48,163 nucleotides of DNA, taken from NCBI GenBank assembly GCA_030604635.1, contig JAUVVL010000002.1, forward strand, positions 1 to 48,163, read 5' to 3'. Origin of the DNA: Desulfobacteraceae bacterium (lineage in GTDB: Bacteria; Desulfobacterota; Desulfobacteria; Desulfobacterales; UBA11574). Each line of letters starts with the position of its first letter. The stretch's first letter is position 1. Below the pieces are notes generated by a model. That model was not told where the DNA came from, did not search any database, and was given only the letters and a program-made list of their open reading frames with translations. Positions 4,903-46,709 of the stretch are shown here, piece by piece. The translations under genes were made by a program, and so were the position numbers.

Positions 4903-4973
4903 TTGTCATTTGTCATTTGTTATTAGTTATTGGTTATTAATTATTGGTTATTAATTATTGGTTATTAATTATT
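4897..4973. repeat. STRR-like heptamer array, 11 units (AGTCATT/TGTCATT/GGTTATT/AATTATT)
   Basis: Exactly 77 nt (11 x 7). It fills the whole spacer between the stop of 4973..5872 and the start codon of 2887..4902. Confidence 0.9.
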
Positions 4974-5872
4974 CACTGGACCTTGGACAATCTTATTTCC
5001 AGCAGATTATTTCTAAGATGAACCTGCTGGCTATCGAAATTTGCTTCACAGGGCAGCTGGATGATTTCCGCCCAGGGGGAGCCGGTTTTTTCGGATTTGA
5101 CCACCAGCTCATCTCCGTGAATTTCCAGTTTTAAATCAGATGCCGCCACCCTTTTTGCTTCCATAATCACCCGGATGTGCGAGCCTTCATCGAATATGTC
5201 CAATAACCGGTCTTTGGTCTCTTTCCTCCATTTTTCCTGCTCTCCCATCAGCCACCAGCTAAATAAAACCTTTTCTCCGGTCTCGTGGTCTGTCCTGGCC
5301 CTTTCAAAAGAGAGAATCGGGCAGCCGACCACTTTCTCTGCGATGGGATTGATCGTCTCCTTAATGTTCAGAAGAACATGCATATGGTTTGGGGCATCGA
5401 TGAGTTTGGCCAGTTGGTCGATCCTGGCGTGACGGTTGTCCCGGAGGTACCACAAAATATCCTGGCCGTCAGGATCGAGTCTGGCAGAAATCTTTTCGAT
5501 AGTTTCCAGATCGATCTTCAAAAGAGAAGCCTGCATGATTATTCTTTTCTGCCAGGTTTCACAATCGTTTACCACGAACCAGATCCTGGAATCCCCTGAG
5601 GCTTTTCCAGCCTTATAAAAAAGACATACGGCTTGTTTTCTCCTTAAAACATAATGGAGTTTTTCTACCTTTAACGCTTTGATATCATTTACCAGGATTT
5701 TAAACCGAATAGTGCGTCCCTGGCAGATCATCAGCCTTTGATTGGTAAGATATAACCCGGCAATCTTCCACCCGGAGCGCAAGCTATCCTTATATGCCCC
5801 CTGGCCTTGGATGATAATATGCTCACCATCTTGAAGGTGGGGGATGCCGGTTTTTTGGAAATCTCTTTGCAT
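4973..5872 (-). CDS. Three-part protein: PH/GRAM-like domain, wHTH-like segment, C-terminal alpha-crystallin (Hsp20-like) domain
   Basis: N-terminal GWKIAGLYLTNQRLMICQG..W motif pattern of GRAM/GLUE-type PH domains. Middle DILWYLRDNRHARIDQLAKLI. C-terminal LLDIFDEGSHIRVIMEAKRVAASDLKLEIHGDELVV..IQLPCEAN..NNLLEIRLSK resembles an ACD. Confidence 0.55.
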   Translation of the reverse strand: MQRDFQKTGIPHLQDGEHIIIQGQGAYKDSLRSGWKIAGLYLTNQRLMICQGRTIRFKILVNDIKALKVEKLHYVLRRKQAVCLFYKAGKASGDSRIWFVVNDCETWQKRIIMQASLLKIDLETIEKISARLDPDGQDILWYLRDNRHARIDQLAKLIDAPNHMHVLLNIKETINPIAEKVVGCPILSFERARTDHETGEKVLFSWWLMGEQEKWRKETKDRLLDIFDEGSHIRVIMEAKRVAASDLKLEIHGDELVVKSEKTGSPWAEIIQLPCEANFDSQQVHLRNNLLEIRLSKVQ

Positions 5873-5906: not shown

Positions 5907-7670
5907 TTACATCTTCTCCAACAATTTCCTAAGCGCTTCCGTCTTATTTTTGATGAGCCCGCTTTCACCTTGGGCCATGGCCTCTTTTACTTTAAATATG
6001 ACTGACTCAATCTGTCGAAGATAAGAAGTCGACAATTTTCCCTTTTTTTCCTCAACAACCAGTTCAGCCGCACGGATCATGCTGTCGGCCTGGATGTTAA
6101 TCTCCAATGACTCGCGTTTTTTCATATCTTCTTCGGCATGCGCTTCAGCCTCACTGACCGCCTGCTTTACCTGTTCATCCGACAACAGGTATGAAGCATC
6201 GATCTTGATGCCGGTCTGTTTTTCGGTGTGCAGCTCCTGAGCAGAGACTTTCACGATTCCGTTCACATCGATCTTAAAGGAGACCTCCACATGGGCCTTT
6301 CCCCTGGGCAGGGTTGGAATATCGGTCAACTGGAATTGCCCCAGGCTGAAATTGTCTACAGCCATCTCCCGCTCACCCTGGAGGACATGAATATCCATCA
6401 CGGCTTGATTATCCTCGGCGTTGGTAAATATCTGCCCGGCAGATGTGGGTATGGCGGCGTTTCTGTGGATGATCTTTGTAAAAAGACCGCCCTGTGTTTC
6501 AACACCTAATGAAAGCGGGGTTACGTCAACCAGTACAACATCGCTAATCTCTCCGGTCAAAACCCCGGCCTGGACAGCCGCCCCGATTCCCACTACCTCA
6601 TCAGGGTTGATCTTGACATAAGGTTTTTTATTAAAGATTTTTTCCACCAGTTCTCTTACAGACGGCATTCGGGTGGAGCCTCCCACCAACACGATCCGAT
6701 CGATCTCATCCGGAGACAGCCGGGCATCAGATAAGGCCAGCCGTGTAGGGCCGACGAGCTTTTCCCTCAAATCCGAAGTTATCGCTTCAAATGTTTCCCG
6801 ATCAATTGAGACCTCCGGATCTTTTAATTTGCCGTTTTGGGTCCTGCCCGCTCGTGCCCTGTCCGCCTCGCTCCACCCGGCAGGAGGGCAGGCGGGTTTG
6901 ATAAAAGGAAGGGAAATTTTGACACCGGGTTGGCAGGAAAGCTCCCTTTTGGCCTTTTCACAGGCCTCTTTCAAACGCTGTAGTGCGTATTTGTCTGATC
7001 TTATATCAACCCCATGTTCATTTAAAAATTTTTCAGCAAAGTAATCAAGCAGCCTTTGGTCCCAGTCATCGCCGCCAAGCCGGGTGTTGCCGCTGACAGC
7101 TTTGACATGAAAAAAACCGTCTCCCAGCTCCAGGATGGACACGTCAAACGTCCCTCCGCCCAGGTCCCAGACCAGGATCGTTTGAATATCTTCACGATCC
7201 AGCCCATAAGCCAGGGAGGCCGCCGTAGGCTCGTTGATTATCCTTATCACATCAAGGCCGGCTATCCTGCCGGCATCTTTGGTGGCCTGGCGCTGACCGT
7301 CATTGAAATAGGCAGGAACCGTGATAACGGCCTTTTTCACCTCTTCTCCAAGATAGTTCTCAGCGTCTGATTTTATCTTGCGCAAAATAAAGGAGGATAT
7401 CTCCTGGGGGGAATAGCTCCTGCCATTAAGAGAGACTCTGTAGTCGCTGCCAATATGCCTCTTAATGGACATGACCGTCTTTTCGGTATTGGCTGCGGCC
7501 TGGCTTTTGGCTACCGAGCCGACCAGTTTATGCCCCTGGGCTGTTTCCGCAAAAACAGAGGGCGTCAGATTTTCCCCTTCAGCGTTTTTAATCACTTTGG
7601 CCTGCCCATCTTCTATAATGGCTGCCACCGAGTAAGTAGTGCCAAGATCTATGCCGATTGCTTTAGTCAT
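5907..7670 (-). CDS. Atypical Hsp70/DnaK-family chaperone (short lid, extra loop insert)
   Basis: GIDLGTTYSVAA, DLGGGTFDVSIL, VLVGGSTRMP and a substrate-binding beta domain (VDVTPLSLGVET). 587 aa, so the C-terminal lid/tail is shorter than in DnaK. About 18 extra residues follow LPFI. Confidence 0.9.
   Translation of the reverse strand: MTKAIGIDLGTTYSVAAIIEDGQAKVIKNAEGENLTPSVFAETAQGHKLVGSVAKSQAAANTEKTVMSIKRHIGSDYRVSLNGRSYSPQEISSFILRKIKSDAENYLGEEVKKAVITVPAYFNDGQRQATKDAGRIAGLDVIRIINEPTAASLAYGLDREDIQTILVWDLGGGTFDVSILELGDGFFHVKAVSGNTRLGGDDWDQRLLDYFAEKFLNEHGVDIRSDKYALQRLKEACEKAKRELSCQPGVKISLPFIKPACPPAGWSEADRARAGRTQNGKLKDPEVSIDRETFEAITSDLREKLVGPTRLALSDARLSPDEIDRIVLVGGSTRMPSVRELVEKIFNKKPYVKINPDEVVGIGAAVQAGVLTGEISDVVLVDVTPLSLGVETQGGLFTKIIHRNAAIPTSAGQIFTNAEDNQAVMDIHVLQGEREMAVDNFSLGQFQLTDIPTLPRGKAHVEVSFKIDVNGIVKVSAQELHTEKQTGIKIDASYLLSDEQVKQAVSEAEAHAEEDMKKRESLEINIQADSMIRAAELVVEEKKGKLSTSYLRQIESVIFKVKEAMAQGESGLIKNKTEALRKLLEKM
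6834..6899. repeat. GC-rich REP-like segment embedded in-frame in the Hsp70 gene (encodes KPACPPAGWSEADRARAGRTQ)
   Basis: The sense strand cccgcctgccctcctgccgggtggagcgaggcggacagggcacgagcgggcagg closely matches the intergenic element at 43351-43400 and 45080-45130. Confidence 0.7.
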
Positions 7671-11306: not shown

Positions 11307-12071
11307 TTACACAAAACTATAAGGAGGCCAGGGTCCGGTGTAGCGGACGGAAAATCCATCCATAGCATCTATTTTTTCCAGCTCAGTTCCTAGTTCTTTA
11401 CTTCCATCCTTAGTAAGCAAACAAGATAGATTCATGAACATCTGTTTATCTGTGTCTTCTGTTTTTTTGGTCTTTTCCACGCGGAGATCATCCACATAGG
11501 GCTTGATTTTCGCATAGAACTCATTAAAGTATTGGTCTGCCTTATCTTCCATCTCTTTTTTTAAGATTCCCTCCAGTTTTTGCCTGTACATATAGGCCAG
11601 TCCTCTTGGCTTTGATTTGATTTCTTCGTTTAACTTTTTGATTTCAACACTTTCTTCGGCAAGGTTCTGAGCCATTACTTCCGAATCCCAGAAGATCTGA
11701 ACTCCATATTCAGCCTTATTGCCAACCTTTTCAATTTTTGTTTTAAAACTGTCATAGTCCCGCTTTAAGCAATTCTTCATATTCTCTTCAGGGCTGGTAA
11801 GCCCGTCACCCAGAATGATGGTATCAAAACCAAAAGGAAGCACGGTGCCAAATTTTTCCCAGGCAATATCAACCACCTTTTGATGTGTGCTTACCCAGCC
11901 CTTTAATATTTCTTCATTTTCCGACTGGTACAGCTCAGCATGACAATTATGGACTACAGCACTTAAATCTTTGTAAGGAACTGTATAGACACTATTGCCT
12001 TCTATGCCGATCCTGCCCAGATTAACGCTTTCGTTGCCCTTTACAATGCAGTAAAGATATCTACCGTTCAT
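11307..12071 (-). CDS. gvpF: GvpL/GvpF-family gas vesicle protein
   Basis: N-terminal GRYLYCIV..GIEGNSVYTVPYKDLSAVV and C-terminal YTGPWPPYSFV are hallmarks of GvpF/L. Confidence 0.9.
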   Translation of the reverse strand: MNGRYLYCIVKGNESVNLGRIGIEGNSVYTVPYKDLSAVVHNCHAELYQSENEEILKGWVSTHQKVVDIAWEKFGTVLPFGFDTIILGDGLTSPEENMKNCLKRDYDSFKTKIEKVGNKAEYGVQIFWDSEVMAQNLAEESVEIKKLNEEIKSKPRGLAYMYRQKLEGILKKEMEDKADQYFNEFYAKIKPYVDDLRVEKTKKTEDTDKQMFMNLSCLLTKDGSKELGTELEKIDAMDGFSVRYTGPWPPYSFV

Positions 12072-24632: not shown

Positions 24633-25409
24633 TCACCATTTCACCACGATTTCAACAAAATTGGCTGGTGGTATAGGCCCTACGTACTTCAATTTTATTC
24701 TTCCATTATTGATTTCGTCCAATTGATTCACGCAGGAGTCAAACTTCTCACCCTGAACCTGATCTACTAAAAATGCCGCGTTCAAAAGCATCCTGTCGCT
24801 AAACGTATCGTTGATCCGATTGTCAACGAAAAACTTCTTTAATCTATTCAATATCTTGTTTGCCTCTTTTTCCTTTTTTCTTTCTAAGGCAGATTTAACA
24901 AGCCCGCCCAACCTTATTCTCTCATTATGCCCCTCCGTTCCTTTCATGGAAGCAATCTTCTTTTTCAATATCCTGATTTCCCTGCTTGACTCCAAAATCT
25001 CCTCGAATATCAGGTCAACATCCGTCCACAGGGCCTTGAGGCCAAGCTCTGCCTTATTCTCCATTTCTGTAAGCAAGGCATTGAACTCATCATATCTTTC
25101 TTTCAATATCTTATCTTTAATTCTATCCTTTGAGGAAATCCCTTCCTTATCCTCGGCAATAGTGCAAAACCTCACCGGAAGAATCGTATATTCTTTCATC
25201 ACCTCTTCCATCACCAACTGATGGGCAACGGTATTTTTCCTGCTAACAGGATATTTCACAACAGGTGAGTCGCTGATAACCGCCCCTATATTTTGATGGC
25301 AAATACTATAGACCCTGTCTCCTCTGTCACCTATTCCTTTAACTGGAAAATCCCGCTCTTCATTCATCGCAGTAATGCAATAAATATAATGTCCTTGTTT
25401 TTCCTTCAT
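24633..25409 (-). CDS. gvpF: GvpL/GvpF-family gas vesicle protein
   Basis: GHYIYCIT..GIGDRGDRVYSICHQNIGAVIS.. and C-terminal KYVGPIPPANFVEI. Confidence 0.9.
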   Translation of the reverse strand: MKEKQGHYIYCITAMNEERDFPVKGIGDRGDRVYSICHQNIGAVISDSPVVKYPVSRKNTVAHQLVMEEVMKEYTILPVRFCTIAEDKEGISSKDRIKDKILKERYDEFNALLTEMENKAELGLKALWTDVDLIFEEILESSREIRILKKKIASMKGTEGHNERIRLGGLVKSALERKKEKEANKILNRLKKFFVDNRINDTFSDRMLLNAAFLVDQVQGEKFDSCVNQLDEINNGRIKLKYVGPIPPANFVEIVVKW

Positions 25410-29256: not shown

Positions 29257-29326
29257 TCCAGTTCCTCCCTCTAAATTAGCCAAAAGTAAAAATGGAAATT
29301 CCTGTACCAACAAGTTATTATTAATT

Positions 29327-29402
29327 CTTAGCCACAGACACACACGGACGAACAGAGACTTTCATTATCTTGTCTGTGCCTGTCTGTGTGGGTCTGTGGC
29401 TG
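29327..29402. repeat. Imperfect palindrome built of CAGACAC-type heptamers
   Basis: agccacagacacacacggacgaacagagac ..loop.. gtctgtgcctgtctgtgtgggtctgtggct. Confidence 0.6.
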
Positions 29403-31510: not shown

Positions 31511-31966
31511 TCACTCCTCCCTTTTTTCTTCTTCTACCAGTTTGTCCAGTTCTTTTTGCAGCTCCACAGATTTTTCTTTATACTCTTCCTCTGTTATCTC
31601 CCCAATTTCCCGGCGCATTTGCAGTTCCAGAAGAGCATCCTTGAGCCTGGCTTCCTGATCCATCTCCTCATCGGCAATAGCACCCATCCTTCCGGCCAGT
31701 TTCGCTACCCCGGTCAGCGGGCTCAGAGGAACGGTGACCGGAGCTTTCAGGATCGTACCCAGCAGTCCTTTTTCCACCGGACGGAGGGTTTTCCTGCGCT
31801 TCATGCTTTTGCCCCAACCCCAGGAAGGCATCAATCCCCAGAACCGTGGCAGGGTTATCCGGGGAATTCCACTAACCAGGCCAATAACACTGCCAACCAG
31901 CGGAAATCTGCCCTTTTGAAAGTGGACCTTATCCATTTTCTTTGGTTTATTTCCCTTCTTTGCCAC
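31511..31966 (-). CDS. GvpG-like protein with ~75-aa basic/hydrophobic N-terminal extension
   Basis: C-terminal half LKAPVTVPLSPLTGVAKLAGRMGAIADEEMDQEARLKDALLELQMRREIGEITEEEYKEKSVELQKELD parallels GvpG (31969..32208). Confidence 0.6.
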   Translation of the reverse strand: MAKKGNKPKKMDKVHFQKGRFPLVGSVIGLVSGIPRITLPRFWGLMPSWGWGKSMKRRKTLRPVEKGLLGTILKAPVTVPLSPLTGVAKLAGRMGAIADEEMDQEARLKDALLELQMRREIGEITEEEYKEKSVELQKELDKLVEEEKREE

Positions 31967-31968
31967 GA

Positions 31969-32208
31969 TTAATCCTCCTCCTTATACTTCCTGATTTCCT
32001 CTAACTTTTCCATCAGCCTGGTCTCTTGTTTCTCAAACTCTTCGTCGGCAATCTCTCCCAACTCATAACGCATCTGAAGCTCTAACAAGTCTTCGTATAT
32101 CCTGGAATCATCTGTTTTCTCTTGCTCGGCGGATTCGGCCAGCTTTCTGGAAACCCATACCGGGAACTTGATGGGAGCAAGAACTATGTCGTCTACGATA
32201 AGCGCCAT
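31969..32208 (-). CDS. gvpG: Gas vesicle protein GvpG
   Basis: MALIVDDIVLAPIKFPVWVSRKLAESAEQE..LLELQMRYELGEIADEEFEKQETRLMEKLEEI is the canonical GvpG pattern. Confidence 0.85.
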   Translation of the reverse strand: MALIVDDIVLAPIKFPVWVSRKLAESAEQEKTDDSRIYEDLLELQMRYELGEIADEEFEKQETRLMEKLEEIRKYKEED

Positions 32209-33017: not shown

Positions 33018-34082
33018 CTAATGTATAACCTTCCTTGACCCAAGCACCTGCAGGTTGGTGTCAAACTTGAGTTCATAGATCACAATTGGGGGCCTGCCTG
33101 CCCGCTCAATATTGCGCGTGCGCATCTCTTCCCAGGGCTCCACCATTGCCCTCCACCCACCGTTCTCCTGGTTGAGGTTGACAACCCTGCCGGCCTCGCT
33201 GATGGCCTTTTCGAGCACTTTAATGCCTACCTGAGGGGCTTTTTCACGGATAACATTCATCAAAGGCTTGAGAAAGTGCCTAACCTGTTCTGCCCGCTTC
33301 TTCTTTTCATCTTTTATTTTTTCGTAAGAGCTGATCTTCAATTCCTGATCGACACGAAGCTCATAGAGACTCGGTTCTGTGCGGTGCTCCTTACGCCGCC
33401 GTTTTTTTTCCTCCCAGGGCTCGATCACGGCCATGCATCCGTCCCCCTCCCATTTCAGGTCCACCACTTCACCCAGAGCATCGAATGCCTCCTCAAAAAA
33501 CCCGGCAGCCATATCAGGGGTTACATTGTGCCTGGCCTCGTACAATTTTTTGCTGAAAATGCGCAGGCAAGCCTGCAATTGGGCCTTTTGCTCCTCCATT
33601 CTTCGCTTCTCCTCTGCCTCTTGCCTCTTTCTGGCCTCTCGCGTCTCCTTCCATGTAGCTGCTTCTTTCTCCAGAGCAACCACCCGGGGATCGGGACGAG
33701 TTATTCCCCTGGCCCTGCGCCATTCCATGGCCATCAGCTTCTTTCTGATTGCCACAACGGTGGCCGTGTTTATAGAAATTGGTTTGGCTTCTTTTTTATC
33801 CTTTTTTTTCTGAGGCATCCATGAATCCAGCATTGAATGCGATGATCTCTTCTTTGTAAATTCCTCGGAGGATACCTCGTGAAAAGCTATAGCTGAGGTG
33901 GTATCTCCTACAGGAGTTGCAGCCGCCGGTTTCGATTGAAGCCTTTGATATTCAAAATCCCTCTTTACAGCCTCGGATTCTCTTTCGATGGCAGATTTAT
34001 CCGGATACTTTTTCCCGAACATTCGTGCTTTTTCCTTAGCAATTTCGTCTATGGCTGTTTTTCTGAGACCTGCACTCTTCAT
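33018..34082 (-). CDS. Protein with two tandem GvpO-like domains
   Basis: Start at ATG 34082, overlapping the upstream TGA (ATGA). The two segments FEEAFDALGEVVDLKWEGDGCMAVIEPWEE..SLYELRVDQELKI and LEKAISEAGRVVNLNQENGGWRAMVEPWEE..VIYELKFDTNLQV mirror the GvpO core (..DSDGWLVSIEVIEK..LATYETKLDPDGNM). Confidence 0.6.
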   Translation of the reverse strand: MKSAGLRKTAIDEIAKEKARMFGKKYPDKSAIERESEAVKRDFEYQRLQSKPAAATPVGDTTSAIAFHEVSSEEFTKKRSSHSMLDSWMPQKKKDKKEAKPISINTATVVAIRKKLMAMEWRRARGITRPDPRVVALEKEAATWKETREARKRQEAEEKRRMEEQKAQLQACLRIFSKKLYEARHNVTPDMAAGFFEEAFDALGEVVDLKWEGDGCMAVIEPWEEKKRRRKEHRTEPSLYELRVDQELKISSYEKIKDEKKKRAEQVRHFLKPLMNVIREKAPQVGIKVLEKAISEAGRVVNLNQENGGWRAMVEPWEEMRTRNIERAGRPPIVIYELKFDTNLQVLGSRKVIH

Positions 34083-34579
34083 ACTCCCCCTCCTTTTACT
34101 GTCACCACTCCTTTTCCCCTGCACTCGACGCAGGGGAGCTTGCTGTGAGAATCTACCGCCCGCCCTTTGCATCTGCGGCACTGCTCCAGGGGTTCTCTGA
34201 CCGGCACCACACCCTTTCCTCGACAGACCACGCAGGTGATGTTGGTGCGGGGGCGTTCCTCGCCCCGGCCCTTGCAAAAAACGCAAATCATGGCAGGGGG
34301 GGTAACCGAAACCAGACCTTTGCCCCGGCACACAGGGCACGTACTTCCCCTGGGCTTTTCGCCGGAGCCCTGGCAGAACGCACACGGATAAGTTTCTTTA
34401 CGGAGTATCCCCCTGATCTGCTGACCCATTAGGCCCGGATCGTACTGCTCACCAATCTCTTTTACGTCAACCGGCTCCCAGAGCAAACCGCTGTCATGAA
34501 ACCGCGCTTCGCCGTCCCTCTGGTTTTCCGCCTTTTTCAGGTTATGCGAAGGTGTTACATATTCAAATTCCAAAGTCAT
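34079..34579 (-). CDS. Stand-alone DnaJ-type zinc-finger protein, 6 repeats (paralog of the N-terminal half of 28315..29256)
   Basis: CAFCQGSG, CPVCRGKG, CVFCKGRG, CVVCRGKG, CRRCKGRA (degenerate), CVECRGKG. Shared N-terminal motif GLLWEPV / GLIWSPV. ATG 34579 has a GGGAGGA RBS. Confidence 0.8.
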   Translation of the reverse strand: MTLEFEYVTPSHNLKKAENQRDGEARFHDSGLLWEPVDVKEIGEQYDPGLMGQQIRGILRKETYPCAFCQGSGEKPRGSTCPVCRGKGLVSVTPPAMICVFCKGRGEERPRTNITCVVCRGKGVVPVREPLEQCRRCKGRAVDSHSKLPCVECRGKGVVTVKGGGV

Positions 34580-34794
34580 TCCTCCCGTTACCACAATAAT
34601 CCACGGACTTTTTTGACAGGCCCGCCCTGGCGCGACGTAAGAAACTTTGTTTAGGTTTAGCTATTAATCATTAGATTCCGGATATCGATAGCCGCTGCTC
34701 TTTTAACCAGGTCTGGGCCAGGGATTAACTGGATTTATTACCCGGCAGGCAGGTCTTATATCCTGATCATCTTGTACATCCTGTCATTTAAGTT

Positions 34795-35061
34795 TTAGTC
34801 TTCTACGTCTTCCGTATCGATTCGCTTGCGCATCCTGACCCGCTTGAATTCCAGCATATTTCCGTCGGGATCCAACTTGGTTTCGTATGTGGCCAGAACA
34901 TCCATACCGTCAGGAAGGGAATGCTTTTCAATGACCTCTATACTCACCAGCCACCCGTCACTATCTCTGGCCGCCCCCAAGGTTGATCCAACCTCTAAAG
35001 CGGTAAGCAAACTTAATTCTGACCGTGCCTTTTCTATTACTTCTCTTATACCTAAAGCCAT
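34795..35061 (-). CDS. gvpO: Gas vesicle protein GvpO
   Basis: IEKARSELSLLTALEVGSTLGAARDSDGWLVSIEVIEKHSLPDGMDVLATYETKLDPDGNMLEFKRVRMRKR. Start at ATG 35061. Confidence 0.85.
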   Translation of the reverse strand: MALGIREVIEKARSELSLLTALEVGSTLGAARDSDGWLVSIEVIEKHSLPDGMDVLATYETKLDPDGNMLEFKRVRMRKRIDTEDVED

Positions 35062-35100
35062 TTTGTTTTGCCTCCTTTTGTGAAATAATATTGAATAACT

Positions 35101-35175
35101 CACGAAAATCTGTGTAATCTGCGCCTGCCCCGTGGGTCCGGAAGATCGTACTGGGGTAATCTGTGGATTAAAATT
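35101..35175. repeat. 75-nt dispersed repeat R2, copy 1
   Basis: cacgaaaatctgtgtaatctgcgcctgccccgtgggtccggaagatcgtactggggtaatctgtggattaaaa has about 4 mismatches to 41498..41570. Confidence 0.85.
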
Positions 35176-35215
35176 AATAGAATTCCTTCAATCTTCATTC
35201 TTCAATCTTCAATCT

Positions 35216-35884
35216 TCAATTCATCAGGTATTCACCCAGCTCATCGAACTTTTCTTCATCACCTCCGGAGATGAGTATTTTAAAATAGGCCTTCATCTTT
35301 TCCCGTTTTTTTACCTCTTCAACCTCAATATCTTCGGCAAGTAGAGAAAGCACATCATGATAAGCCCCTATGAAAAGAACCCCCATTTCTTCCGCTTTAA
35401 GAGTCTGATTTATAGTGTCGGCAATAAATCTGTCCCTTTTGTCCATAAGTTTATCTCTGTGAAATCTGTATCCTATGTAAGCCGTAGTCCTTTCCCAGAG
35501 CGATTTGCTCTGGGCAAGCTTGAGGATTCGATCGTATTCTTCCTTAAGAAGCGTTATATCTTCTGTCTTTCTTATCTCAGCACCTCTTCTGATCAGGTCA
35601 AGGACAATCCGGTAATTTCTGCTACCTTTTTGTGCTCCTTCCTCGATAATCTTTTGACCAAGCTCGCCATCTGCCATTAATCCATCCTGATAGATTTTCA
35701 AATTATCGGCATTTAAATTCTTGAAATATTCCTCAATATTATCCCAAAATGTGGATACAGTCTGTTTATGTCTTTCCCACCGTTCTCTCCCGCATATCTG
35801 TGTACTTCTTTTGTCGATAGCAGGCGCGATGCCCCCTAAATCAGATTCTACATGAATAACCGGCACATAGAGTAATTTTCTCAT
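35216..35884 (-). CDS. Hypothetical protein (222 aa)
   Basis: Clean ORF between heptamer arrays. No motif recognised by eye. Confidence 0.5.
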   Translation of the reverse strand: MRKLLYVPVIHVESDLGGIAPAIDKRSTQICGRERWERHKQTVSTFWDNIEEYFKNLNADNLKIYQDGLMADGELGQKIIEEGAQKGSRNYRIVLDLIRRGAEIRKTEDITLLKEEYDRILKLAQSKSLWERTTAYIGYRFHRDKLMDKRDRFIADTINQTLKAEEMGVLFIGAYHDVLSLLAEDIEVEEVKKREKMKAYFKILISGGDEEKFDELGEYLMN

Positions 35885-35885
35885 T

Positions 35886-35968
35886 ATTCTTCAATATGCA
35901 ATCTTCAATTGTTTCGGTCTTCAATCTTCAATCTTCACTCTTCAATTGTCTTGGTCTTCACTCTTCAA
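35886..35968. repeat. STRR-like CTTCAAT heptamer block
   Basis: ttcttcaatatgcaatcttcaattgtttcggtcttcaatcttcaatcttcactcttcaattgtcttggtcttcactcttcaatcttcaat. Confidence 0.85.
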
Positions 35969-35971
35969 TCT

Positions 35972-36994
35972 TCAATTAACCACTGATCTCCTGACATCTA
36001 TCCACCCCCTGACATCCGCTTCCTTAAATGAACACCGGTCCTCCCGGCAGTAATCGCTGAGCATATGATAGGCCTTGTTGATCTTCTCAAACCTCTGATG
36101 AACTTCCGGATCACCCGGATACTTATCGGGATGAAACTTTTTGCTCAATTCCTTGTACGCTTCCCTCATTTCAAAAGTCTCGGCTTCTTCCCCTAACCCC
36201 AGCATTTTTCTGGCCTCGTTGATCTCATCAAATTCCGCCTTTTTAATCTCCAGCGTGTTGAAACTGTATGGGGGAAGGGGGCCTATAATTCTAAAATTGA
36301 TTGCGTTTTTGAATCGTTTGTCCAGTTGGTCCACTTTCAACTCAAAGGTTTTTTGATTATCTTTCTTTATTAAAAAAGCGCTGTTCATTATCATAGAATC
36401 ATCCATAACTTCATGCGTCCGGTAAGTTTCAGCTTCTTTTCTCAATACATTCAATATGTTTGAAACGCATTTATCCCTCTTTTTATCCAACGTGTCCTTG
36501 ACCATTTTCCCCAGGTTTATTTTAATTTCAAATAGTTGATCAGCCGGTTTAGATGCCGCTTCTTCCTTAAGTTTTTTAATCTCTTCTTCTCTTCCTATTT
36601 CCTTTAAAACCGTCTCCATGTCGCTCCATAGTGCCGCTACATCGAGCTCTATTTTGTTCTCCATTTCCTTGAGGTTTGTGTTGATTCGTCGATAGCCCTT
36701 TTTTAGGATTATCTTAAGCTCTTCCTGTCCTTGAACCATTGTTCCGAATTTCACCGGTATAATGTGATGACTTTTCATCACCTTTTCGATGACAGCTTGA
36801 TAAACGGCCAAATTGCGGAGGAGAGTTTCTTTGGGTAGAGAATCAAATTGTATGAGCGGCAAATCGCTAACCACAGCAGCGATATCCTGATAGGAAAAGG
36901 TGTAAACTTCTCCCTGATCTAAACCTATGGCGCCAAAATTTTCATGTTCACTTTTATTGACAAAACCATAAATGTATCTTCCTTCTATGGCCAT
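35972..36994 (-). CDS. gvpF: GvpL/GvpF-family protein fused to a C-terminal DnaJ J-domain
   Basis: N-terminal GRYIYGFV..GLDQGEVYTFSYQDIAAVVS and IIGPLPPYSFNTLEI (GvpF/L). C-terminal LGLGEEAETFEMREAYKELSKKFHPDKYPGDPEVHQRFEKINKAYHMLSD has the HPD tripeptide. Single uninterrupted ORF. Confidence 0.9.
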   Translation of the reverse strand: MAIEGRYIYGFVNKSEHENFGAIGLDQGEVYTFSYQDIAAVVSDLPLIQFDSLPKETLLRNLAVYQAVIEKVMKSHHIIPVKFGTMVQGQEELKIILKKGYRRINTNLKEMENKIELDVAALWSDMETVLKEIGREEEIKKLKEEAASKPADQLFEIKINLGKMVKDTLDKKRDKCVSNILNVLRKEAETYRTHEVMDDSMIMNSAFLIKKDNQKTFELKVDQLDKRFKNAINFRIIGPLPPYSFNTLEIKKAEFDEINEARKMLGLGEEAETFEMREAYKELSKKFHPDKYPGDPEVHQRFEKINKAYHMLSDYCREDRCSFKEADVRGWIDVRRSVVN

Positions 36995-37006: not shown

Positions 37007-37137
37007 GAAGCTGGTTGCTCGTTACTCGTTGCTTGTTACTGGTTGCTACCCACTAACCACTCTCCGACCTCTGACTACTGACCTCTGATCTCTGACCTCC
37101 GACTTCTGATCTCTGACATCCGACCTCCGATCACTGG
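37007..37137. repeat. STRR-like heptamer block (GTTGCTC/GTTACTC then CTGACCT/CCGACTT/CTGATCT units)
   Basis: ctggttgctcgttactcgttgcttgttactggttgct .. cgacctctgactactgacctctgatctctgacctccgacttctgatctctgacatccgacctccgatcactggtca. Confidence 0.85.
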
Positions 37138-39264
37138 TCACCGTACTTCCTTTAATGCTTCCTGAAAGTGCTTTCCTGAAACCAAAAGCTTGGACTCATC
37201 CCGGCCTCCATTTTGAATAAATTCTCTTATGGCTGTCATTGAGGCCTTCCTGCAAATTAATTCTATATCCGCTCCAACAAGCCTCTCCGTTGCACCGGCC
37301 AGTGCCTTAAGGTCCACGTTCTTGGCCAAAGGTTTCCCTCTGGTATGGACTTTAAATATCTCTAATCTTGTCTCCTCATCCGGGATGGGAAGCTCCAGCA
37401 GGAAATCGAATCTGCCGGCCCTGAGCAAGGCCGAATCGACAATATCCAGTCTGTTAGTAGCCGCCAGAACCACAATCCCCTTGAGTTCCTCGATTCCGTC
37501 CAGCTCGGTCAGAAATTGGCTGATGACGCGATCGACCACATGGGATGCAGCTTCGGAACCGCGCCTGGGAACCACACTGTCTATTTCATCGAAAAATATG
37601 ATACATGGAGAGGCCTGCTTGGCTTTCTTGAAAACCTCACGAACGCCTTTTTCGCTTTCTCCAACCCACTTGGAGAGGATCTCCGGGCCTTTGATTGAAA
37701 TAAAATTCACCTCTGATTCAGAGGCAACTGCCTTGGCAAGTAATGTCTTGCCTGTTCCGGGTGGACCATATAGCAATATACCTTTGGAAGGGTTTGTTTT
37801 GGCATGTTCAAACAACTTATCGTATTTCAGGGGCCATTCGATGGTTTCCTTTAGCACCCTTTTTATTTCGGAAAGTCCGCCGACATCGCTCCACTTTACA
37901 TCCGGAATTTCTGTGAACACTTCCCTGATGGCTGAAGGCTCAACTTCCTTAAGGGCCTCCATGAAATCATCCATAGTCACCTGAAGTTTCATCAAAGTCT
38001 CGTAAGGGATCTCTTCCATCTGGAAGTCAATGCTGGGGAAGAGTTCTCTCAGGGTAACCATCGCCGCTTCCCGGGAAAGGGCCTCCAGATCAGCACCAAC
38101 AAACCCATGAGTAATCTCGGATATACGCACCAAATCCACGTCCTCGGCCAGAGGCATTCCCCGTGTGTGGACATCCAGTATTTCAAGGCGGCCGTTTTTG
38201 TCGGGTATGCTGATTTCTATCTCTCGATCGAAACGTCCCGGCCTTCTCAAGGCTGGATCAAGGACATTGGGGATGTTGGTGGCGCCGATAACGATCACCT
38301 GACCTCTGGAGGAAAGGCCGTCCATCAATGCCAGAAGCTGGGCTACCACCCGCTTTTCCAGTTGTTTCTCGCCTCCCATCTCCTCCCGCTTGGGAGCAAC
38401 GGAGTCAATCTCGTCTAAAAATATAATGCTTGGAGCATGCACAGAGGCCTCATCAAATATCCTTCTGAGATGGGCCTCGCTTTCGCCATAGTACTTGTGC
38501 ATGATCTCCGGGCCGCTAATATGTCCAAAGTGTGCATCGGTCTCATTGGCCACAGCGCGGGCGATGAGGGTCTTTCCGCATCCGGGGGGACCGTGTAAAA
38601 GAACTCCTTTGGGAGGCTCGATGCCGAGCCTTTCAAAGACCTGGGGATATTTTAACGGCAGTTCGATCATCTCTCGAATCCGCCGGATTTCCTTGCCCAA
38701 CCCGCCGATATCTTCATAGGATATCCTGGCCATGGCCACACCAACGCCCTTCTTCTCCTGAATCCTCATAACAGTCTTGGGGTTGATTATCACCACGCCT
38801 GCGGGCTTGGTGGAAACAACTTTAAAATCCTGGGTTCGAGTTCCGATAAGTCTTGCTCTTACCATGTCACCCACTAATAGCGGCAAACCCTCCAGGAGGC
38901 TTCCGATGTAGCGGGCATCGTAGGAACGCATCAAGGTTAAAGGGGCAACAACAATTTTTTGGGCCGGCATGAAATCAGACTTTGTGACGGAAATTTTTTC
39001 GTCAAGGCCGACACGGGCATTTTCGCGGGTGATCCCATCCAGGCGAATCAAACTCTTGCCCCGGTCTTCCATATAGGCAGGCAAAACCTTGGCCACGGTT
39101 TCCCTTTTCCCTTTGATGGTCACCACATCTCCCACTTCAACCCCTATTTTTTTAAAATCGGCGGGGTCAAAACGGACAATGCCGCGACCTACATCTTTGG
39201 AACCAGCCTCTGCCACTTTTAGGGTAATGGTTTTGTTTTCTATGTTCTTTTTTTGGGCTTTCAT
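37138..39264 (-). CDS. Cdc48/VCP/VAT-like double-ring AAA+ ATPase (N-domain, D1, D2)
   Basis: N-domain [34 protein letters not shown]1 [11 protein letters not shown] / [10 protein letters not shown]2 [11 protein letters not shown] / IIFFDEIDS. Second-region-of-homology arginines are present. Confidence 0.92.
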
Positions 39265-39413: not shown

Positions 39414-39971
39414 CTAAATTGTCTTTATCTTAATCTCCAGTATCCCGTTTTTATATGACCAGGTCATATCCTCGGTCTTGACCGGGCGGGAGAGGAGGAC
39501 CTCTTTCTGATATTTTCTGCTTGCTCCCTCGGCAATAATATTCAGGATGTCCCCTTTAATCTCAAGGCTGATGTCCTTTTTCTCGATACCCGGCATCTCT
39601 GCAATAATATTAATCTCCCCGGGTTCTTCAAACACGTCCACGATAGGCTCGCGCATCTCCTCTACCACAGGACCCTTGGGAGTTTTTTTGATATTCCCAA
39701 AGGGCTGAATGGATGGCTTGCCGTCGGCCATGGTGCGTACCCTGACCCCGTAAACGCCTTTCAGATCCTTGAGCCCCTTGATCTTTTCGAGGCCGCTGAA
39801 ACGGATCTCGCCTGTTTTGGAAAGCTCTTCGCCCTTTTCAGCCAACTTAGTAGCTGTATCGATCAGATTACCCAGCCCCTTGAAGAGCCCGCCAAGACCA
39901 AAATCAATTCCAATGCCCTCGTCTTTTTTTTCTTCTTCAGGTTTTTCCTTCTTCTTTTTTTCTTCCGTCAT
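39414..39971 (-). CDS. Hsp20/alpha-crystallin protein (GvpH-like), copy 2
   Basis: IVDVFEEPGEINIIAEMPGIEKKDISLEIKGDILNIIAEG..NGILEIKIK. N-terminal LGGLFKGLGNLIDTATKLAEKGE. Confidence 0.8.
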   Translation of the reverse strand: MTEEKKKKEKPEEEKKDEGIGIDFGLGGLFKGLGNLIDTATKLAEKGEELSKTGEIRFSGLEKIKGLKDLKGVYGVRVRTMADGKPSIQPFGNIKKTPKGPVVEEMREPIVDVFEEPGEINIIAEMPGIEKKDISLEIKGDILNIIAEGASRKYQKEVLLSRPVKTEDMTWSYKNGILEIKIKTI

Positions 39972-40508: not shown

Positions 40509-41426
40509 TTAGCAGTGTTGATCAATCAATTCTCCAATAACCTCTTTGACTTTGTCCTGGTTGGACTTGCTGCCGATGCGGCTGGTCTCTGATGACAAAA
40601 TATCCATACAGGTTTGTTTGAAAATTTCGTCATTCTTGTTGACCAAAGCCCTTCGGACCTTAAGAGTCTTGGCAATCATAACGCTGCCCCTTATGGTGGG
40701 AGCAAATTCGTACACATCGGAATCCCTCAGTCCCCGGACAATTTTAACAATCCTGGAGGCATCACCATTGGCAAGGCCTGATTTGGTTTCGGTGATACGA
40801 ACCTCCGTCTCTTCGTCGAAATGATCGAGATCAAGGGTGATCATTCGATCTCGGAGGGCATCCTGGCTGCGGTGCACGCCGGCATATTCCTCCGGGTTGC
40901 TGGTAAAAAGCGCCGTAAAGTCCGGGTCAACCCGCAGATAGTTCTCATCCCCCTCACGAGCCGCCGGCAGGTCCAGCATTTTTTCCTGGAGCACTGATAA
41001 AAGTACGTTATTGGCCTCGGGCCTGGAACGGGTAAATTCATCGTAAATGAGCGTGAACCCATACTTGCAGGCTACGGTCAGACGATTGTCCACCCACTTT
41101 TTTTGCAGATTCTCCTCGGTCTTAAGTACTGAATGGATGAAGTTATCCACCACCTTGCGCATACGATAACCATGCTCGCCGCCAACCAGGTCGGACGTGG
41201 AGAACTCCTCATCCCCGTGTATCATGACCACCGGCCGGCCGATCTTGCTGGCTACATGCATGGCCAGGGTGGTCTTGCCTGTTCCGGAAATCCCGCGCAA
41301 ATGAAGTGGAAAACCGGCCGCAATATAGGCCAGAGCCCTCTCGGTAATATCCTTTACAAACGGGGTTTCTACGAAGTTGGGCAGGGGACGCGGTTCCAAC
41401 ACAGTTGTCATTTCATCTATCGCCAT
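40509..41426 (-). CDS. gvpN: Gas vesicle AAA+ ATPase GvpN, copy 2
   Basis: FVETPFVKDITERALAYIAAGFPLHLRGISGTGKTTLA, TLIYDEFTRSRPEANNVLLSVLQE. Confidence 0.92.
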   Translation of the reverse strand: MAIDEMTTVLEPRPLPNFVETPFVKDITERALAYIAAGFPLHLRGISGTGKTTLAMHVASKIGRPVVMIHGDEEFSTSDLVGGEHGYRMRKVVDNFIHSVLKTEENLQKKWVDNRLTVACKYGFTLIYDEFTRSRPEANNVLLSVLQEKMLDLPAAREGDENYLRVDPDFTALFTSNPEEYAGVHRSQDALRDRMITLDLDHFDEETEVRITETKSGLANGDASRIVKIVRGLRDSDVYEFAPTIRGSVMIAKTLKVRRALVNKNDEIFKQTCMDILSSETSRIGSKSNQDKVKEVIGELIDQHC

Positions 41427-41497: not shown

Positions 41498-41570
41498 CAC
41501 GAAAATCTGTGTAATCTGCGCCTGCCCCGTAGGTCCGGAAGATCGTACTGGGGCAATCTGTGTATTAAAA
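41498..41570. repeat. 75-nt dispersed repeat R2, copy 2, enclosed by a perfect 13-bp inverted repeat (41478-41490 / 41577-41589)
   Basis: gcgataggcagtc .. R2 .. gactgcctatcgc. Confidence 0.85.
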
Positions 41571-41596
41571 CTACCTGACTGCCTATCGCATTCCGC

Positions 41597-41950
41597 CTAC
41601 TTCTTACTCACAACCCCCTTACCCCCGCATTTCGAGCAAGGGAGGTAATCGCCTGATTTGATACCCTTGCCCTCGCAGTCGGGGCAGGTCTCATACGGCT
41701 CTTTTATGTTTACCATGCCTTTTCCGCCGCAGGCAATACAGGTCAGGCGCTGGTCACGGTGAATACCTGTGCCGCCACAGAAAACACACTCGATGGCCGG
41801 TTCCGGGATGGTCACTTCTCCCCGGCCGCCACAGACCTGGCAGGTGGAGAGCTTGGACAAAAGCTCAAACGGGTCGGTCCCCTTTCCCTGACAGAAGGCG
41901 CATGTGGCAGTGACCCTCCCCTCTTCTCCTTGTAATATTTCGATACTCAT
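41597..41950 (-). CDS. Stand-alone DnaJ-type zinc-finger protein, 6 repeats
   Basis: CAFCQGKG, CQVCGGRG, CVFCGGTG, CIACGGKG, CPDCEGKG, CSKCGGKG. Confidence 0.85.
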   Translation of the reverse strand: MSIEILQGEEGRVTATCAFCQGKGTDPFELLSKLSTCQVCGGRGEVTIPEPAIECVFCGGTGIHRDQRLTCIACGGKGMVNIKEPYETCPDCEGKGIKSGDYLPCSKCGGKGVVSKK

Positions 41951-42011: not shown

Positions 42012-43079
42012 TCAGGCAATAAAATAGGTTGAATCTTCCTTCCTTACTTCTCCGTCGTCAAGGAGCTGTCTCATAACGGGAATCAGGGATCTCCAGCTTT
42101 CAATACCCAGGATGTCAGCCATCTCGACCATCCTCAGACCATCGGGATGGTCTTCAAGTATCCCTATGACCCCATCAGCCAGGCCCTCCTCCTCAGGCTC
42201 TTCTTCCTCTGCGAGATCCTCTTCCGGTTCCTCAATGACCTCCTCGGCAGATTCCTCTGCCGGTTCCTCGATGACCTCCTCAGCCGGTTCAACCTCCTCG
42301 GCAGCTTTTACCCTGGCCGGTCCTCTGGCCGACTGCATGGTAGCTAAAAGTTCCTTCCAGGCGACGGCCGTTTCTTCGCGTTCTTGTTTAAATTCCTTTA
42401 AGAGGTCATCAATATACTCCCTCCGAGGAGCATGCTCTGTCTTGAATTCTGCAATTAAATCCGCAACTTCCCTGGCTCGCCTAGGTCCCTCTGCCTTGAA
42501 TTCAGAAATCAGATCCGCAACTTCCCTGGCTCGCTCAGGTCCCTCTGCCGCAAATTCAGAAATCAGATCCGCAACCTCCCTGGCTCGCTCAGGTCCCTCT
42601 GCCTTGAATTCAGATATTAAATCGGCAACTTCCTTGGCTCGCTCAGGTCCCTCTGCCGCAAATTCAGAAATCAGGTCGGCAACCTCCCTGGCTCGCTCAG
42701 GTCCCTCTGCCTTGAATTCAGATATTAAATCGGCAACTTCCTTGGCTCGCTCAGGCCCCTCTGCTTTGAATTCAGAAATTAAATCAGCAACCTCCCTGGC
42801 TCGCTCAGGCCCCTCTGCTTTGAATTCAGAAATTAAATCAGCAACCTCCCTGGCTCGATCAGGCCCCTCTGCTTTGAATTCAGAAATTAAATCAGCAACC
42901 TCCTTGGCTCGCTCAGGCCCCTCTGCTTTGAATTCAGAAATTAAATCAGCAACCTCAGCCCTGCGCTCCTCATTTGCTGTTTTGCATTCAGATAACAGAT
43001 CTTGCACAAAATCCTTCCTGTCCCTATAGGCGCTGGCCATTTCATCTGCCAATCCTCTCAAATCGTCTGCATTTGCCAT
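42012..43079 (-). CDS. Acidic protein with ~10 tandem 18-aa repeats (EVADLISEFKAEGPERA[KR]), acidic linker and C-terminal wHTH-like domain
   Basis: Repeats span aa 42-221. The linker is EEVEPAEEVIEEPAEESAEEV... The C-terminus is ILEDHPDGLRMVEMADILGIESWRSLIPVMRQLLDDGEVRKE. It is the second gene downstream of gvpA. Confidence 0.7.
   Translation of the reverse strand: MANADDLRGLADEMASAYRDRKDFVQDLLSECKTANEERRAEVADLISEFKAEGPERAKEVADLISEFKAEGPDRAREVADLISEFKAEGPERAREVADLISEFKAEGPERAKEVADLISEFKAEGPERAREVADLISEFAAEGPERAKEVADLISEFKAEGPERAREVADLISEFAAEGPERAREVADLISEFKAEGPRRAREVADLIAEFKTEHAPRREYIDDLLKEFKQEREETAVAWKELLATMQSARGPARVKAAEEVEPAEEVIEEPAEESAEEVIEEPEEDLAEEEEPEEEGLADGVIGILEDHPDGLRMVEMADILGIESWRSLIPVMRQLLDDGEVRKEDSTYFIA
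42417..42956. repeat. 54-bp coding tandem repeat, ~10 units, near-identical
   Basis: Reiterated cctctgc[ct]ttgaattcaga[at]at[ct]a[ag]atc[ag]gcaac[ct]tcc[ct]tggctcgctcagg[ct]c units. Confidence 0.9.
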
Positions 43080-43246: not shown

Positions 43247-43538
43247 CGATTGAATATTGTCGATTGAATATTGACGCTTTGTGGAAGTCGCTCCTGCCCG
43301 CCATCGCACTCGCCGTAACCAGATATGCGAAATTCAAGCGCTTGTGCTCAGGCCCGCCCTCCTGCCAAGCGGAGTGAGGCGGACGGGCGAGGCGGGCGGG
43401 TCGCTCTGTTTTTTTAAAAAACTGACAGAATTCCTTCAATCTTCAATTCCTTCAATCTTCAATTCTTCAATCTTCAATTCTTCAATCTTCAATCTTCAAT
43501 TCTTCAATCTTCAATTCTTCAATCTTCAATCTTCAATT
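43247..43538. mobile_element. MITE/REP-like element, family R1 copy d (full length, with GC-rich module and long CTTCAAT arm)
   Basis: cgattgaatattgtcgattgaatattgac | gtggaagtcgct | cctgcccgccatcgca..gcgggcgggtcgctctgtttttttaaaaaactgacagaattcc | (c)ttcaat array 43431-43538. Confidence 0.6.
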
Positions 43539-44551: not shown

Positions 44552-44758
44552 CTAAGCGGCCTCGGGTAATAGTCCAACGGCCTCAGCGTATTTCAAGAAA
44601 GTCTCAACGCCAGCTATGACGATCCTGGCCTCAATAGCTAAAAGCTCAATGCCGACCAGGGAAATCCTGACCCATGCATCGACCACAACGCCCTTGTCGA
44701 GAATTCTATCGACAACCTCTACCAAACTTGAAGATGCTATTGCTTTTTCTACTGCCAT
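44552..44758 (-). CDS. gvpA: Major gas vesicle structural protein GvpA
   Basis: [63 protein letters not shown] is near-canonical GvpA. GGGGAGGTG RBS. Confidence 0.97.
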
Positions 44759-46650: not shown

Positions 46651-46709
46651 TAATAGTTCATCTATTTTTTGACAGGATAAACAGGATTGACATGATAATT
46701 TTTTTCATC
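46651..46709. repeat. Dispersed repeat R3-left (copy 2)
   Basis: taatagttcatctattttttgacaggataaacaggattgacatgataatttttttcatc. Confidence 0.8.

Follow-up and report, generated by a model that had tools for sequence, protein, structure and literature searches.

A GvpF paralogue fused to a J-domain marks a chaperone-rich type of gas-vesicle cluster

J-domains trigger ATP hydrolysis by Hsp70, which then clamps the client presented by the J-protein. Dedicated partnerships of this kind include HscB/HscA, the J-protein/Hsp70 pair of Fe-S cluster assembly, and auxilin/Hsc70, which acts in clathrin uncoating. In gas-vesicle biology, the role of GvpF/L is open, and so is the question of how the hydrophobic, aggregation-prone shell protein GvpA stays soluble and enters the shell. 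It has been proposed that GvpF acts like a chaperone, as the primary and transient binding partner of the hydrophobic GvpA face; in Halobacterium, B. megaterium and cyanobacteria, GvpF/L are known to bind GvpA or other Gvp proteins and to be needed for vesicle formation (PMC11445434). Here, a stretch of 48,163 nt from a Desulfobacteraceae bacterium (contig JAUVVL010000002.1, assembly GCA_030604635.1; the whole stretch is referred to as the window) was analyzed, in which a GvpF-like domain and a C-terminal J-domain are encoded in one protein of 340 aa, hereafter the fusion. The fusion marks a chaperone-rich type of gas-vesicle cluster. The gene and its parts were located as follows.

35972..36994, minus strand: coding sequence of the GvpF-like/J-domain fusion, ATG start, uninterrupted, 340 aa, stop codon at 35972-35974
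36260..36982, minus strand: GvpL/GvpF domain of the fusion (aa 5-245), Pfam PF06386
36050..36232, minus strand: J-domain of the fusion, helices I-III (aa 255-315), from Pfam, the AlphaFold2 (AF2) model and Foldseek
36125..36133, minus strand: HPD tripeptide (aa 288-290), from the translation
35975..36049, minus strand: C-terminal tail past the J-domain (aa 316-340), from the alignment and the AF2 model

A preliminary description of this locus, made from the sequence alone, had reported a single uninterrupted open reading frame (ORF) of 340 aa without stating its strand. The frame held and lies on the minus strand, the plus-strand reading of 35972..36994 being riddled with stops, and the peptides quoted at that time were found verbatim in the translation (GRYIYGFV at aa 5-12, IIGPLPPYSF at aa 236-245 and LGLGEEAETFEMREAYKELSKKFHPDKYPGDPEVHQRFEKINKAYHMLSD at aa 265-314). 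Two significant Pfam domains, and only two, were detected. PF06386 matched over nearly its full length (E 4.8e-59, 200.8 bits against a cut-off of 23.6; profile positions 1-243 of 245), and PF00226 (DnaJ) matched aa 263-314 (E 6.6e-15, 55.4 bits against a gathering cut-off of 27.8; profile positions 4-55 of 63). The GvpF/L hallmarks and the C-terminal J-domain with an intact HPD noticed earlier were thus both borne out; the status of the protein as a third GvpF/L paralogue and the Cdc48-like ATPase gene adjoining it had been overlooked. In the PDB sequence search, the N-terminal domain matched GvpF 6l5d (E 1.2e-13) and also 4qsg, and the C-terminus aligned with the J-domain of E. coli DnaJ (1bqz/5nro_B).

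Compared with GvpF of Microcystis aeruginosa (4QSG) and Anabaena PCC 7120 (6L5D), the fusion shares the full PF06386 profile, the two-subdomain alpha/beta fold and the location in a gvp cluster, but differs from GvpF/L in its additional J-domain and Cys-containing tail and in forming a clade of its own. Compared with DnaJ, it is without the Gly/Phe-rich (G/F) region, the zinc finger and the C-terminal client-binding domains, none of which was found in the Pfam profile search, and NCBIfam TIGR02349 (DnaJ) scored 47.1 against a cut-off of 377.2, over the J-domain part only. In its fold, its HPD and the lack of class A/B domains, the predicted protein fits class C (type III) of the J-domain proteins. 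TopJ of the Mycoplasma terminal organelle is likewise a bacterial J-domain protein for assembling one cell structure, but its NCBIfam profile reached only 29.8 against a cut-off of 300, over the J-domain alone; the rest is unrelated and the fusion is not a member.

The AF2 model of the 340-aa fusion, built on 63 homologues, was confident throughout (mean predicted local distance difference test, pLDDT, 92.6; predicted template modelling score, pTM, 0.81). When the model was compared with the PDB by Foldseek, the N-terminal 250 residues matched 6l5d_B (E 1.7e-14, probability 1.00, TM(target) 0.69) and 4qsg (E 1.7e-13). The C-terminal part matched dozens of J-domains at a root-mean-square deviation (rmsd) of 1.1-1.6 Å over 54 residues, including the DnaK-bound J-domain of E. 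coli DnaJ (5NRO chain B; 1.1 Å rmsd, 54 residues, 42% identity). The modelled helices of the J-domain span residues 255-264, 273-286 and 296-315, the linker between the GvpF/L domain and the J-domain is conserved and confidently modelled, and the 25-residue tail after helix III forms short strands. The basic face of helix II of a J-domain contacts the nucleotide-binding domain (NBD) of Hsp70, as known from the residue roles in 5NRO. In the fusion, R277, K281, K285 and K286, together with K291 after the HPD, align with DnaJ R22, K26, M30, K31 and R36, and Y280, the counterpart of DnaJ Y25, is invariant in the alignment.

The distribution of the fusion was determined in two collections. In a protein-cluster collection of 5.8 billion proteins, the best 120 clusters (90% identity) were examined, and 118 of them contained PF06386 and PF00226 in one protein of ~340-350 aa at identities of 50-85%; the two without both domains were truncated entries. 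HPD was present in 118 of the 120 close homologues, and the columns of H288, P289 and D290 were invariant in the 63 aligned sequences. An exhaustive phmmer search against 1.84 billion representatives at 50% identity gave 372 proteins at E <= 1e-30, of which the top 150 were inspected. Most of these (141 of 150) were at least 310 aa long and aligned continuously through the J-domain, at identities down to ~30%, and the fusion proteins were ~330-355 aa long across clusters and representatives. HPD was correctly placed in 137 of the 141 distant full-length homologues, while one of them (P0342) carries a natural QPD, the classical inactivating substitution of HPD. The retention of HPD across distant homologues indicated strong purifying selection on the catalytic motif. 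In the tail, the motif Y-C-x4-C-S-F (aa 315-323) begins at Y315, one residue before the tail itself; in the alignment Y315 and C316 never vary, and conservation reaches at least 90% at C321, S322 and F323. This motif is confined to the closer subfamily, 20 of the 141 distant full-length members having it.

The named carriers of the fusion were metagenome-assembled genomes (MAGs) of Desulfobacterales, Syntrophales, Desulfuromonadales and Thermodesulfobacteriota. Single Methanosarcinaceae and Patescibacteria bins also carry it and may be mis-binned. A genome collection added Geopsychrobacter, an Atribacteria MAG (40% identity) and the actinobacterium Ca. Hakubella thermalkaliphila, with HPD intact in all. 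The preliminary description had suggested a search for further GvpF/L-J fusions and had named an assembly artefact as a danger. An origin by faulty assembly or gene calling that joined a GvpF gene to a DnaJ-like neighbour was rejected and has practically no likelihood, as the same single ORF recurred in more than 118 clusters (90% identity) and in about 140 of the top 150 representatives (50% identity), the source assemblies coming from four data providers (NCBI, JGI, ENA and Logan). Independent assemblies share the architecture, and the linker is conserved and well modelled.

Three GvpF/L orthologous groups were found in these clusters: the fusion, a ~250-aa GvpF type and a 330-390-aa GvpL type beside gvpK. 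The latter two are represented in the window by the following genes.

24633..25409, minus strand: canonical GvpF paralogue (~250 aa), PF06386 E 3.9e-58, GvpF 'b' clade
11307..12071, minus strand: GvpL-type paralogue adjoining gvpK, PF06386 E 3.1e-65, GvpL 'c' clade

A neighbour-joining tree was built on the GvpF/L domain alone, with the J-domain trimmed off and nine fusion proteins sampled. The fusion proteins formed one clade, with a bootstrap of 62 overall and 82 for its core of seven. The GvpF and GvpL proteins fell outside it, in two clades each supported at 100. This topology suggested that the fusion probably arose once. The possibility that the fusion is simply the GvpF or GvpL of its cluster was rejected, as both canonical paralogues are co-present and the fusion clade is separate. 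Since the fusion stands in its own clade and canonical GvpF and GvpL are also present, it does not, as judged from the sequences, replace the canonical proteins.

The preliminary description had proposed that the fusion recruits an Hsp70 encoded in the same stretch, which it called atypical. This gene and its immediate neighbours are as follows.

5907..7670, minus strand: short DnaK paralogue (Hsp70, 587 aa), the likely partner of the J-domain, PF00012 E 1.8e-199 covering aa 4-586
4973..5872, minus strand: 299-aa protein with a C-terminal alpha-crystallin (small heat-shock protein, sHSP) domain, sHSP 4rzk E 2.1e-11 over aa 215-296, NCBIfam Hsp20 match
7740-8351 and 8536-9324, minus strand: histidine kinase and response regulator pair, upstream of the Hsp70 gene

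The Hsp70 was confirmed; the word atypical overstates its difference. Its score for PRK00290 passed the NCBIfam cut-off (745.9 against 648), that for TIGR02350 remained below (729.4 against 822.55), and its best PDB match was Geobacillus DnaK (2V7Y, E 4.5e-186), with the alignment starting at residue 1. It is without the C-terminal ~35-50 residues of DnaK and has a ~20-aa insertion at about aa 258-278, and is best described, from these comparisons, as a short DnaK paralogue of a ~569-aa family. In E. coli DnaK, R167 pairs with the HPD aspartate, as known from DnaJ-DnaK genetics and the 5NRO structure. The cluster Hsp70 retains RIINEPTAA, with the equivalent of R167, and a hydrophobic interdomain linker followed by Asp (DVVLVDVTPLSLG). 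With this intact J-coupling surface and linker, it would be expected to need a J-protein.

Genomic association was evaluated in 25 loci, found from the fusion side or from the Hsp70 side and scored by tblastn. The short Hsp70 was present in all 10 fusion clusters reaching at least ~7 kb downstream (L003, L006, L007, L008, L011, L012, L014, L022, L023 and the window), at 51-77% identity to that of the window. In the reverse test, all five loci fetched by Hsp70 homologues (67-75% identity) were gvp clusters, and all three of them that extend far enough upstream hold the fusion. In compact clusters, the Hsp70 gene lies 5-8 kb downstream of the fusion gene on the same strand. Neither the window nor any of the locus tables contained a J-domain (PF00226) besides that of the fusion, or a GrpE. 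The co-occurrence with Hsp70, which the preliminary description had proposed to look for, was seen from both sides.

HscB/HscA is the best functional analogy for this arrangement. Like that pair, the fusion and the cluster Hsp70 combine a J-domain joined to a presumably client-specific domain with an apparently dedicated Hsp70 in the pathway operon and no GrpE alongside, and weak NCBIfam matches to HscB and HscA were recorded. However, HscB has an N-terminal J-domain and the client IscU, whereas the J-domain of the fusion is C-terminal and a structural shell protein is presumed to be its client. The sequences are related in the J-domain only, and the cluster Hsp70 is nearer to DnaK than to HscA.

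The 299-aa sHSP-domain protein directly follows the Hsp70 gene also in L006, L007, L008, L022, L024 and L025, and may be a dedicated holdase or adaptor for the cluster Hsp70. Its N-terminal ~210 residues contain a conserved GW-x6-LT-x2-R (GWKIAGLYLTNQRL in the window) and GCPILSFER. In most loci (L003, L006-L008, L024 and L025), the histidine kinase/response regulator pair immediately precedes the cluster Hsp70 gene; its conservation suggests a separate sensory input to the chaperone part of the cluster.

The genes on both sides of the fusion were also conserved.

37138..39264, minus strand: Cdc48-family double-ring AAA+ ATPase, immediately upstream of the fusion, TIGR01243 947 bits against a cut-off of 802.65, with CDC48_N, CDC48_2 and two AAA domains
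35216..35884, minus strand: 222-aa protein, immediately downstream of the fusion, conserved ORF with no family match

In all 16 loci with upstream DNA, the Cdc48-like gene was found directly upstream of the fusion. The two reading frames are 13-27 nt apart in L004, L007 and L022, and in L023 they overlap by 20 nt. The 222-aa gene follows the fusion in 10 loci, and its start overlaps the fusion stop by 4 nt in L003, L007 and L022. In the compact clusters the genes are arranged on one strand in the order Cdc48 - fusion - (222 aa) - GvpF - GvpG - GvpO - zinc-finger protein - GvpJ - GvpK - GvpL - GvpM-like - (histidine kinase - response regulator) - Hsp70 - sHSP-like - ArsA, and this order is still held at 34-37% fusion identity (L022 and L023). 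No terminator-like hairpin was found in the intergenic spaces between the Cdc48-like gene, the fusion, the 222-aa gene and gvpO, all matches of the scan lying within coding regions at a number expected by chance. The fusion apparently lies in an operon directly after the Cdc48-like ATPase. The coupling of the fusion in these genomes is strict to the Cdc48-like unfoldase and consistent to the private Hsp70.

No Pfam, NCBIfam or PDB sequence match was obtained for the 222-aa protein. Its 438 homologues are all named 'hypothetical', with 66-90% identity among the best 120. The AF2 model gave a confident alpha/beta fold (pLDDT 90.4, pTM 0.86), for which the best Foldseek match in the PDB had an E of only 0.17, and the protein may represent an orphan fold belonging to the Cdc48/J-fusion module.

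With the Cdc48-like ATPase and the 222-aa protein as the tightest genomic partners, the J-domain could in principle be a degenerate structural appendage, used for oligomerization or as a docking site for Cdc48 or the 222-aa protein, with no regulation of Hsp70. The missing helix IV, the extra conserved Cys-containing tail and a pTM of 0.81, which suggests fixed packing against the GvpF body, would agree with this. However, known J-like domains have lost the HPD, while here H, P and D are kept down to ~30% identity, and the fold superposes on a DnaK-bound J-domain at 1.1 Å. Such an appendage is considered very unlikely, and a degenerate J-like domain was rejected on the invariance of HPD and Y280.

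Based on these comparisons, the fusion is probably a class-C J-protein with a specific client, GvpA or GvpJ/M-type proteins, which it would present to the cluster Hsp70. The presumed client is encoded in the window.

44552..44758, minus strand: gvpA, major shell protein, presumed client, NF006874 124.1 bits against a cut-off of 100

In the proposed mechanism, the GvpF-like domain would act as suggested for GvpF and bind hydrophobic GvpA or its relatives of the GvpJ/M type. The HPD loop would dock on the cluster Hsp70 at the interface of NBD and linker and trigger ATP hydrolysis, and the Hsp70 would then clamp the shell protein bound by the fusion. In this way GvpA would stay soluble and be passed on, to GvpG or to the shell, for insertion into the growing shell, and the neighbouring Cdc48-like unfoldase would handle mis-assembled material.

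Several observations weigh against this chaperone role with the cluster Hsp70. Binding of GvpA by the fusion is extrapolated from GvpF of other organisms, and the GvpF and GvpL equivalogs of NCBIfam were far from reached (NF052351, 81.5 against 350; NF045778, 69.6 against 200). The J-domain is without helix IV, in agreement between the model and the Pfam positions, and the acidic E278 and E282 of helix II stand where DnaJ has K23 and R27. The strictest neighbour of the fusion is Cdc48, not Hsp70, and even this has a sole exception, the very distant member in L021 (28% identity), which is not preceded by Cdc48. In L003 the Hsp70 gene is on the strand opposite to the fusion, and in the window it lies ~28 kb away. 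This distance was attributed to the window being an expanded, partly duplicated version of the compact layout. Additionally, J-domains are promiscuous and commonly act on several Hsp70s, so the true partner, or a second one, could be housekeeping DnaK.

If the J-domain worked with housekeeping DnaK/GrpE, the cluster Hsp70 would have another purpose, J-independent or differently regulated. The ~28 kb between the two genes in the window would be in line with this, as would the absence of GrpE from the cluster and the likeness of the J-domain to the canonical one of E. coli DnaJ, the most similar at 42% identity. Nevertheless, the fusion and the short Hsp70 occur together in every cluster long enough to judge, and the fusion is the sole J-domain encoded beside the cluster Hsp70. 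A partnership with the housekeeping system instead of the cluster Hsp70 is accordingly rated unlikely.

The same J-domain/Hsp70 logic may also serve the disassembly and recycling of collapsed or mis-assembled shell, a possible purpose to which we give limited credence. The GvpF-like domain would recognize GvpA, the J-domain would load Hsp70 and the Cdc48-like unfoldase would extract subunits, so that the system would be a gas-vesicle-specific counterpart of the DnaK-DnaJ-ClpB disaggregase. DnaK-DnaJ-ClpB-type chaperones are induced by gas-vesicle collapse in a cyanobacterium. The cluster resembles that machinery in that a J-protein and an Hsp70 are teamed with a hexameric AAA+ unfoldase and sHSPs have the part of holdases; it differs in that the AAA+ protein is Cdc48-type (CDC48_N + D1/D2) instead of ClpB and the components are encoded in the organelle's own cluster. 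In support of recycling, the double-ring AAA+ unfoldase adjoins the fusion in 16 of 16 loci with reading frames often overlapping or nearly abutting, sHSP-domain proteins stand beside the Hsp70 and elsewhere in the cluster, and canonical GvpF and GvpL remain for assembly. On the other hand, Cdc48-like proteins are without the ClpB M-domain for Hsp70 coupling, and the genes lie inside the biosynthetic operon near gvpF/G/O and not in a separate stress regulon.

The auxilin/Hsc70 system parallels both the assembly and the recycling readings. As in auxilin/GAK, a C-terminal J-domain on a lattice-binding module would bring Hsp70 to a self-assembled shell. Auxilin is, however, eukaryotic, its binding domain is unrelated with no homology beyond the J-domain, and it has no AAA+ partner. 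Recruitment of the cluster Hsp70, as set out in the preliminary description, agreed with the comparative genomics; the further statement that it is brought directly to the assembling vesicle went too far, since chaperoning of GvpA before assembly and recycling of collapsed shell fit equally well as delivery to the assembling vesicle.

On a wider and distinctly tentative reading, these widespread clusters would encode a complete organelle-dedicated proteostasis machine, with the fusion as the targeting subunit that couples the private Hsp70, its sHSP partner and the Cdc48-like unfoldase to the GvpA lattice, so that shell subunits would be both inserted and extracted. The zinc-finger proteins, the Get3/ArsA-like ATPases and the 222-aa protein would be further parts of it. 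If true, this would mean ATP-driven, reversible remodelling of a structure now thought to be only built and passively collapsed.

Public annotations already show both domains of the fusion, which is listed by NCBI as 'GvpL/GvpF family gas vesicle protein' and by JGI as 'DnaJ-domain-containing protein 1' or 'hypothetical'. The proposed mechanism keeps to what is established for J-proteins. Among gvp genes, Hsp20 and two-domain ATPases of the ArsA type were reported in Geobacter, Chlorobi, Bacteroidetes and cyanobacteria (Castillo & Saier 2010, PMC2963123). Those clusters are of the same type, and the paper contains no mention of a J-domain, Hsp70 or Cdc48-like ATPase. The Hakubella genome paper lists only gvp genes and hsp20. 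A 23.4-kb cluster of Desulfobacterium vacuolatum (FWXY01000008:1268-24724) makes vesicles in E. coli in an acoustic-reporter screen, and DnaK, DnaJ and Cdc48 go unmentioned in its text and supplements. In full-text searches, with subscription journals outside their coverage, no literature was found that links GvpF/L to a J-domain or names Hsp70 or Cdc48 as a gvp-cluster gene, in keeping with the earlier remark that no described J-domain gvp protein was known. The GvpF-J fusion chaperone system is thus provisionally regarded as undescribed so far.

That a GvpF paralogue is joined to a J-domain, and that this fusion is conserved, lends independent support from evolution to the proposal of GvpF as a GvpA chaperone. 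The fusion also points to specific ATP-driven partners, the cluster Hsp70 and the Cdc48-like unfoldase. It would add a bacterial dedicated J-protein/Hsp70 pair for a structural organelle beside HscB/HscA and auxilin/Hsc70. Most gas-vesicle clusters do not assemble in E. coli or mammalian cells owing to proteotoxic GvpA, and a client-targeted J-protein/Hsp70 module is a possible helper for acoustic reporter genes.

The window is occupied almost entirely by a single, very large gas-vesicle region on the minus strand. It encodes GvpA, two GvpN, GvpO, two GvpG, GvpK, GvpJ/M-type proteins and two GvpF/L besides the fusion, and is an expanded, partly duplicated form of the ~20-kb compact clusters, in which the ArsA copies and the GvpN copies keep residual DNA similarity. 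The remaining features are listed below.

13032-13391 and 9830-10834: GvpJ/M-type proteins
34795-35103, minus strand: GvpO
40509-41426 and 26119-27045, minus strand: two GvpN
39414-39971 and 22926-23519, minus strand: two Hsp20
31511-31966 and 31969-32208, minus strand: two GvpG
19927-21960 and 2887-4902, minus strand: two ArsA/Get3-type ATPases
41597-41950, 34079-34594, 28315-29343, 23827-24261, 18622-18921 and 17339-17782, minus strand: six stand-alone DnaJ-type zinc-finger proteins (PF00684, CXXCXGXG repeats)
14334-15713 and 29507-30895, minus strand: two B12-binding radical SAM enzymes (459 and 462 aa)
42012-43079, minus strand: acidic 355-aa protein between gvpA and gvpN, with about 10-13 tandem 18-aa repeats
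45175-46635, minus strand: NtrC-type sigma-54 activator, just upstream of gvpA
15798-16592, minus strand: 264-aa ORF with no family match, largely 24-nt (8-aa) tandem repeats

One of the six zinc-finger proteins is fused to winged-helix domains, and at least one DnaJ-type zinc-finger gene was also found in the compact clusters L004, L006, L008, L022 and L025. With zinc-finger proteins encoded apart and the J-domain carried on a GvpF paralogue, the cluster looks like a 'split DnaJ', which recalls plant assembly chaperones such as BSD2. The regions of the two B12-radical-SAM genes are about 77% identical in DNA; the enzymes have no obvious substrate and might modify a Gvp protein. The repeats of the acidic 355-aa protein have a 54-nt period, are ~89% identical and follow the consensus ERAREVADLISEFKAEGP. 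No GvpC profile match was obtained for this protein, which is a candidate for a GvpC-like outer-surface reinforcing protein.

A -24/-12-like element, TGGCAT-N5-GTGC (44801-44815, minus strand), was located 43 nt ahead of the gvpA start, and an exact TGGCAC-N5-TTGC (46829-46843, minus strand) ~195 nt ahead of the sigma-54 activator gene. The total number of matches in the sigma-54 promoter scan of the window was at chance level, and only the positions of these two sites are suggestive. A sigma-54 activator also flanks the clusters in L022 and L025. Interspersed with the gvp genes are two copies of a small gene for a '23S rRNA intervening sequence protein', 82% identical in DNA, and one for a protein with the PDDEXK_3 nuclease fold (9335-9763, 10855-11283 and 19458-19829, minus strand); both families recur in L003, L006 and L024.

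More than 20 tandem heptamer arrays were detected in the intergenic spacers, with the coding-strand units (ATTGAAG)n, (TGGTCAT/TAGTCAT)n and (GRTCRGA)n. They were found, among others, at 35888-35976, 37062-37136, 43434-43537, 35186-35220, 12226-12256, 4895-4973 and 9310-9341, and further at 9719-9762, 10836-10876, 11251-11303, 13006-13046, 20675-20706 and 22009-22040. Both spacers beside the fusion gene consist of heptamer arrays, and a few arrays lie inside the ArsA genes. These heptamers resemble the short tandemly repeated repetitive (STRR) heptamers of filamentous cyanobacteria and the TAACTGA arrays of Beggiatoaceae. Additionally, non-coding repeats of 59-87 nt with 90-95% identity were found tens of kb apart, mostly beside gene starts (19388-19446 with 46651-46709; 19844-19928 with 47264-47348; 35101-35187 with 41498-41584; 43293-43360 with 45020-45087), and may be shared regulatory elements or small mobile repeats.

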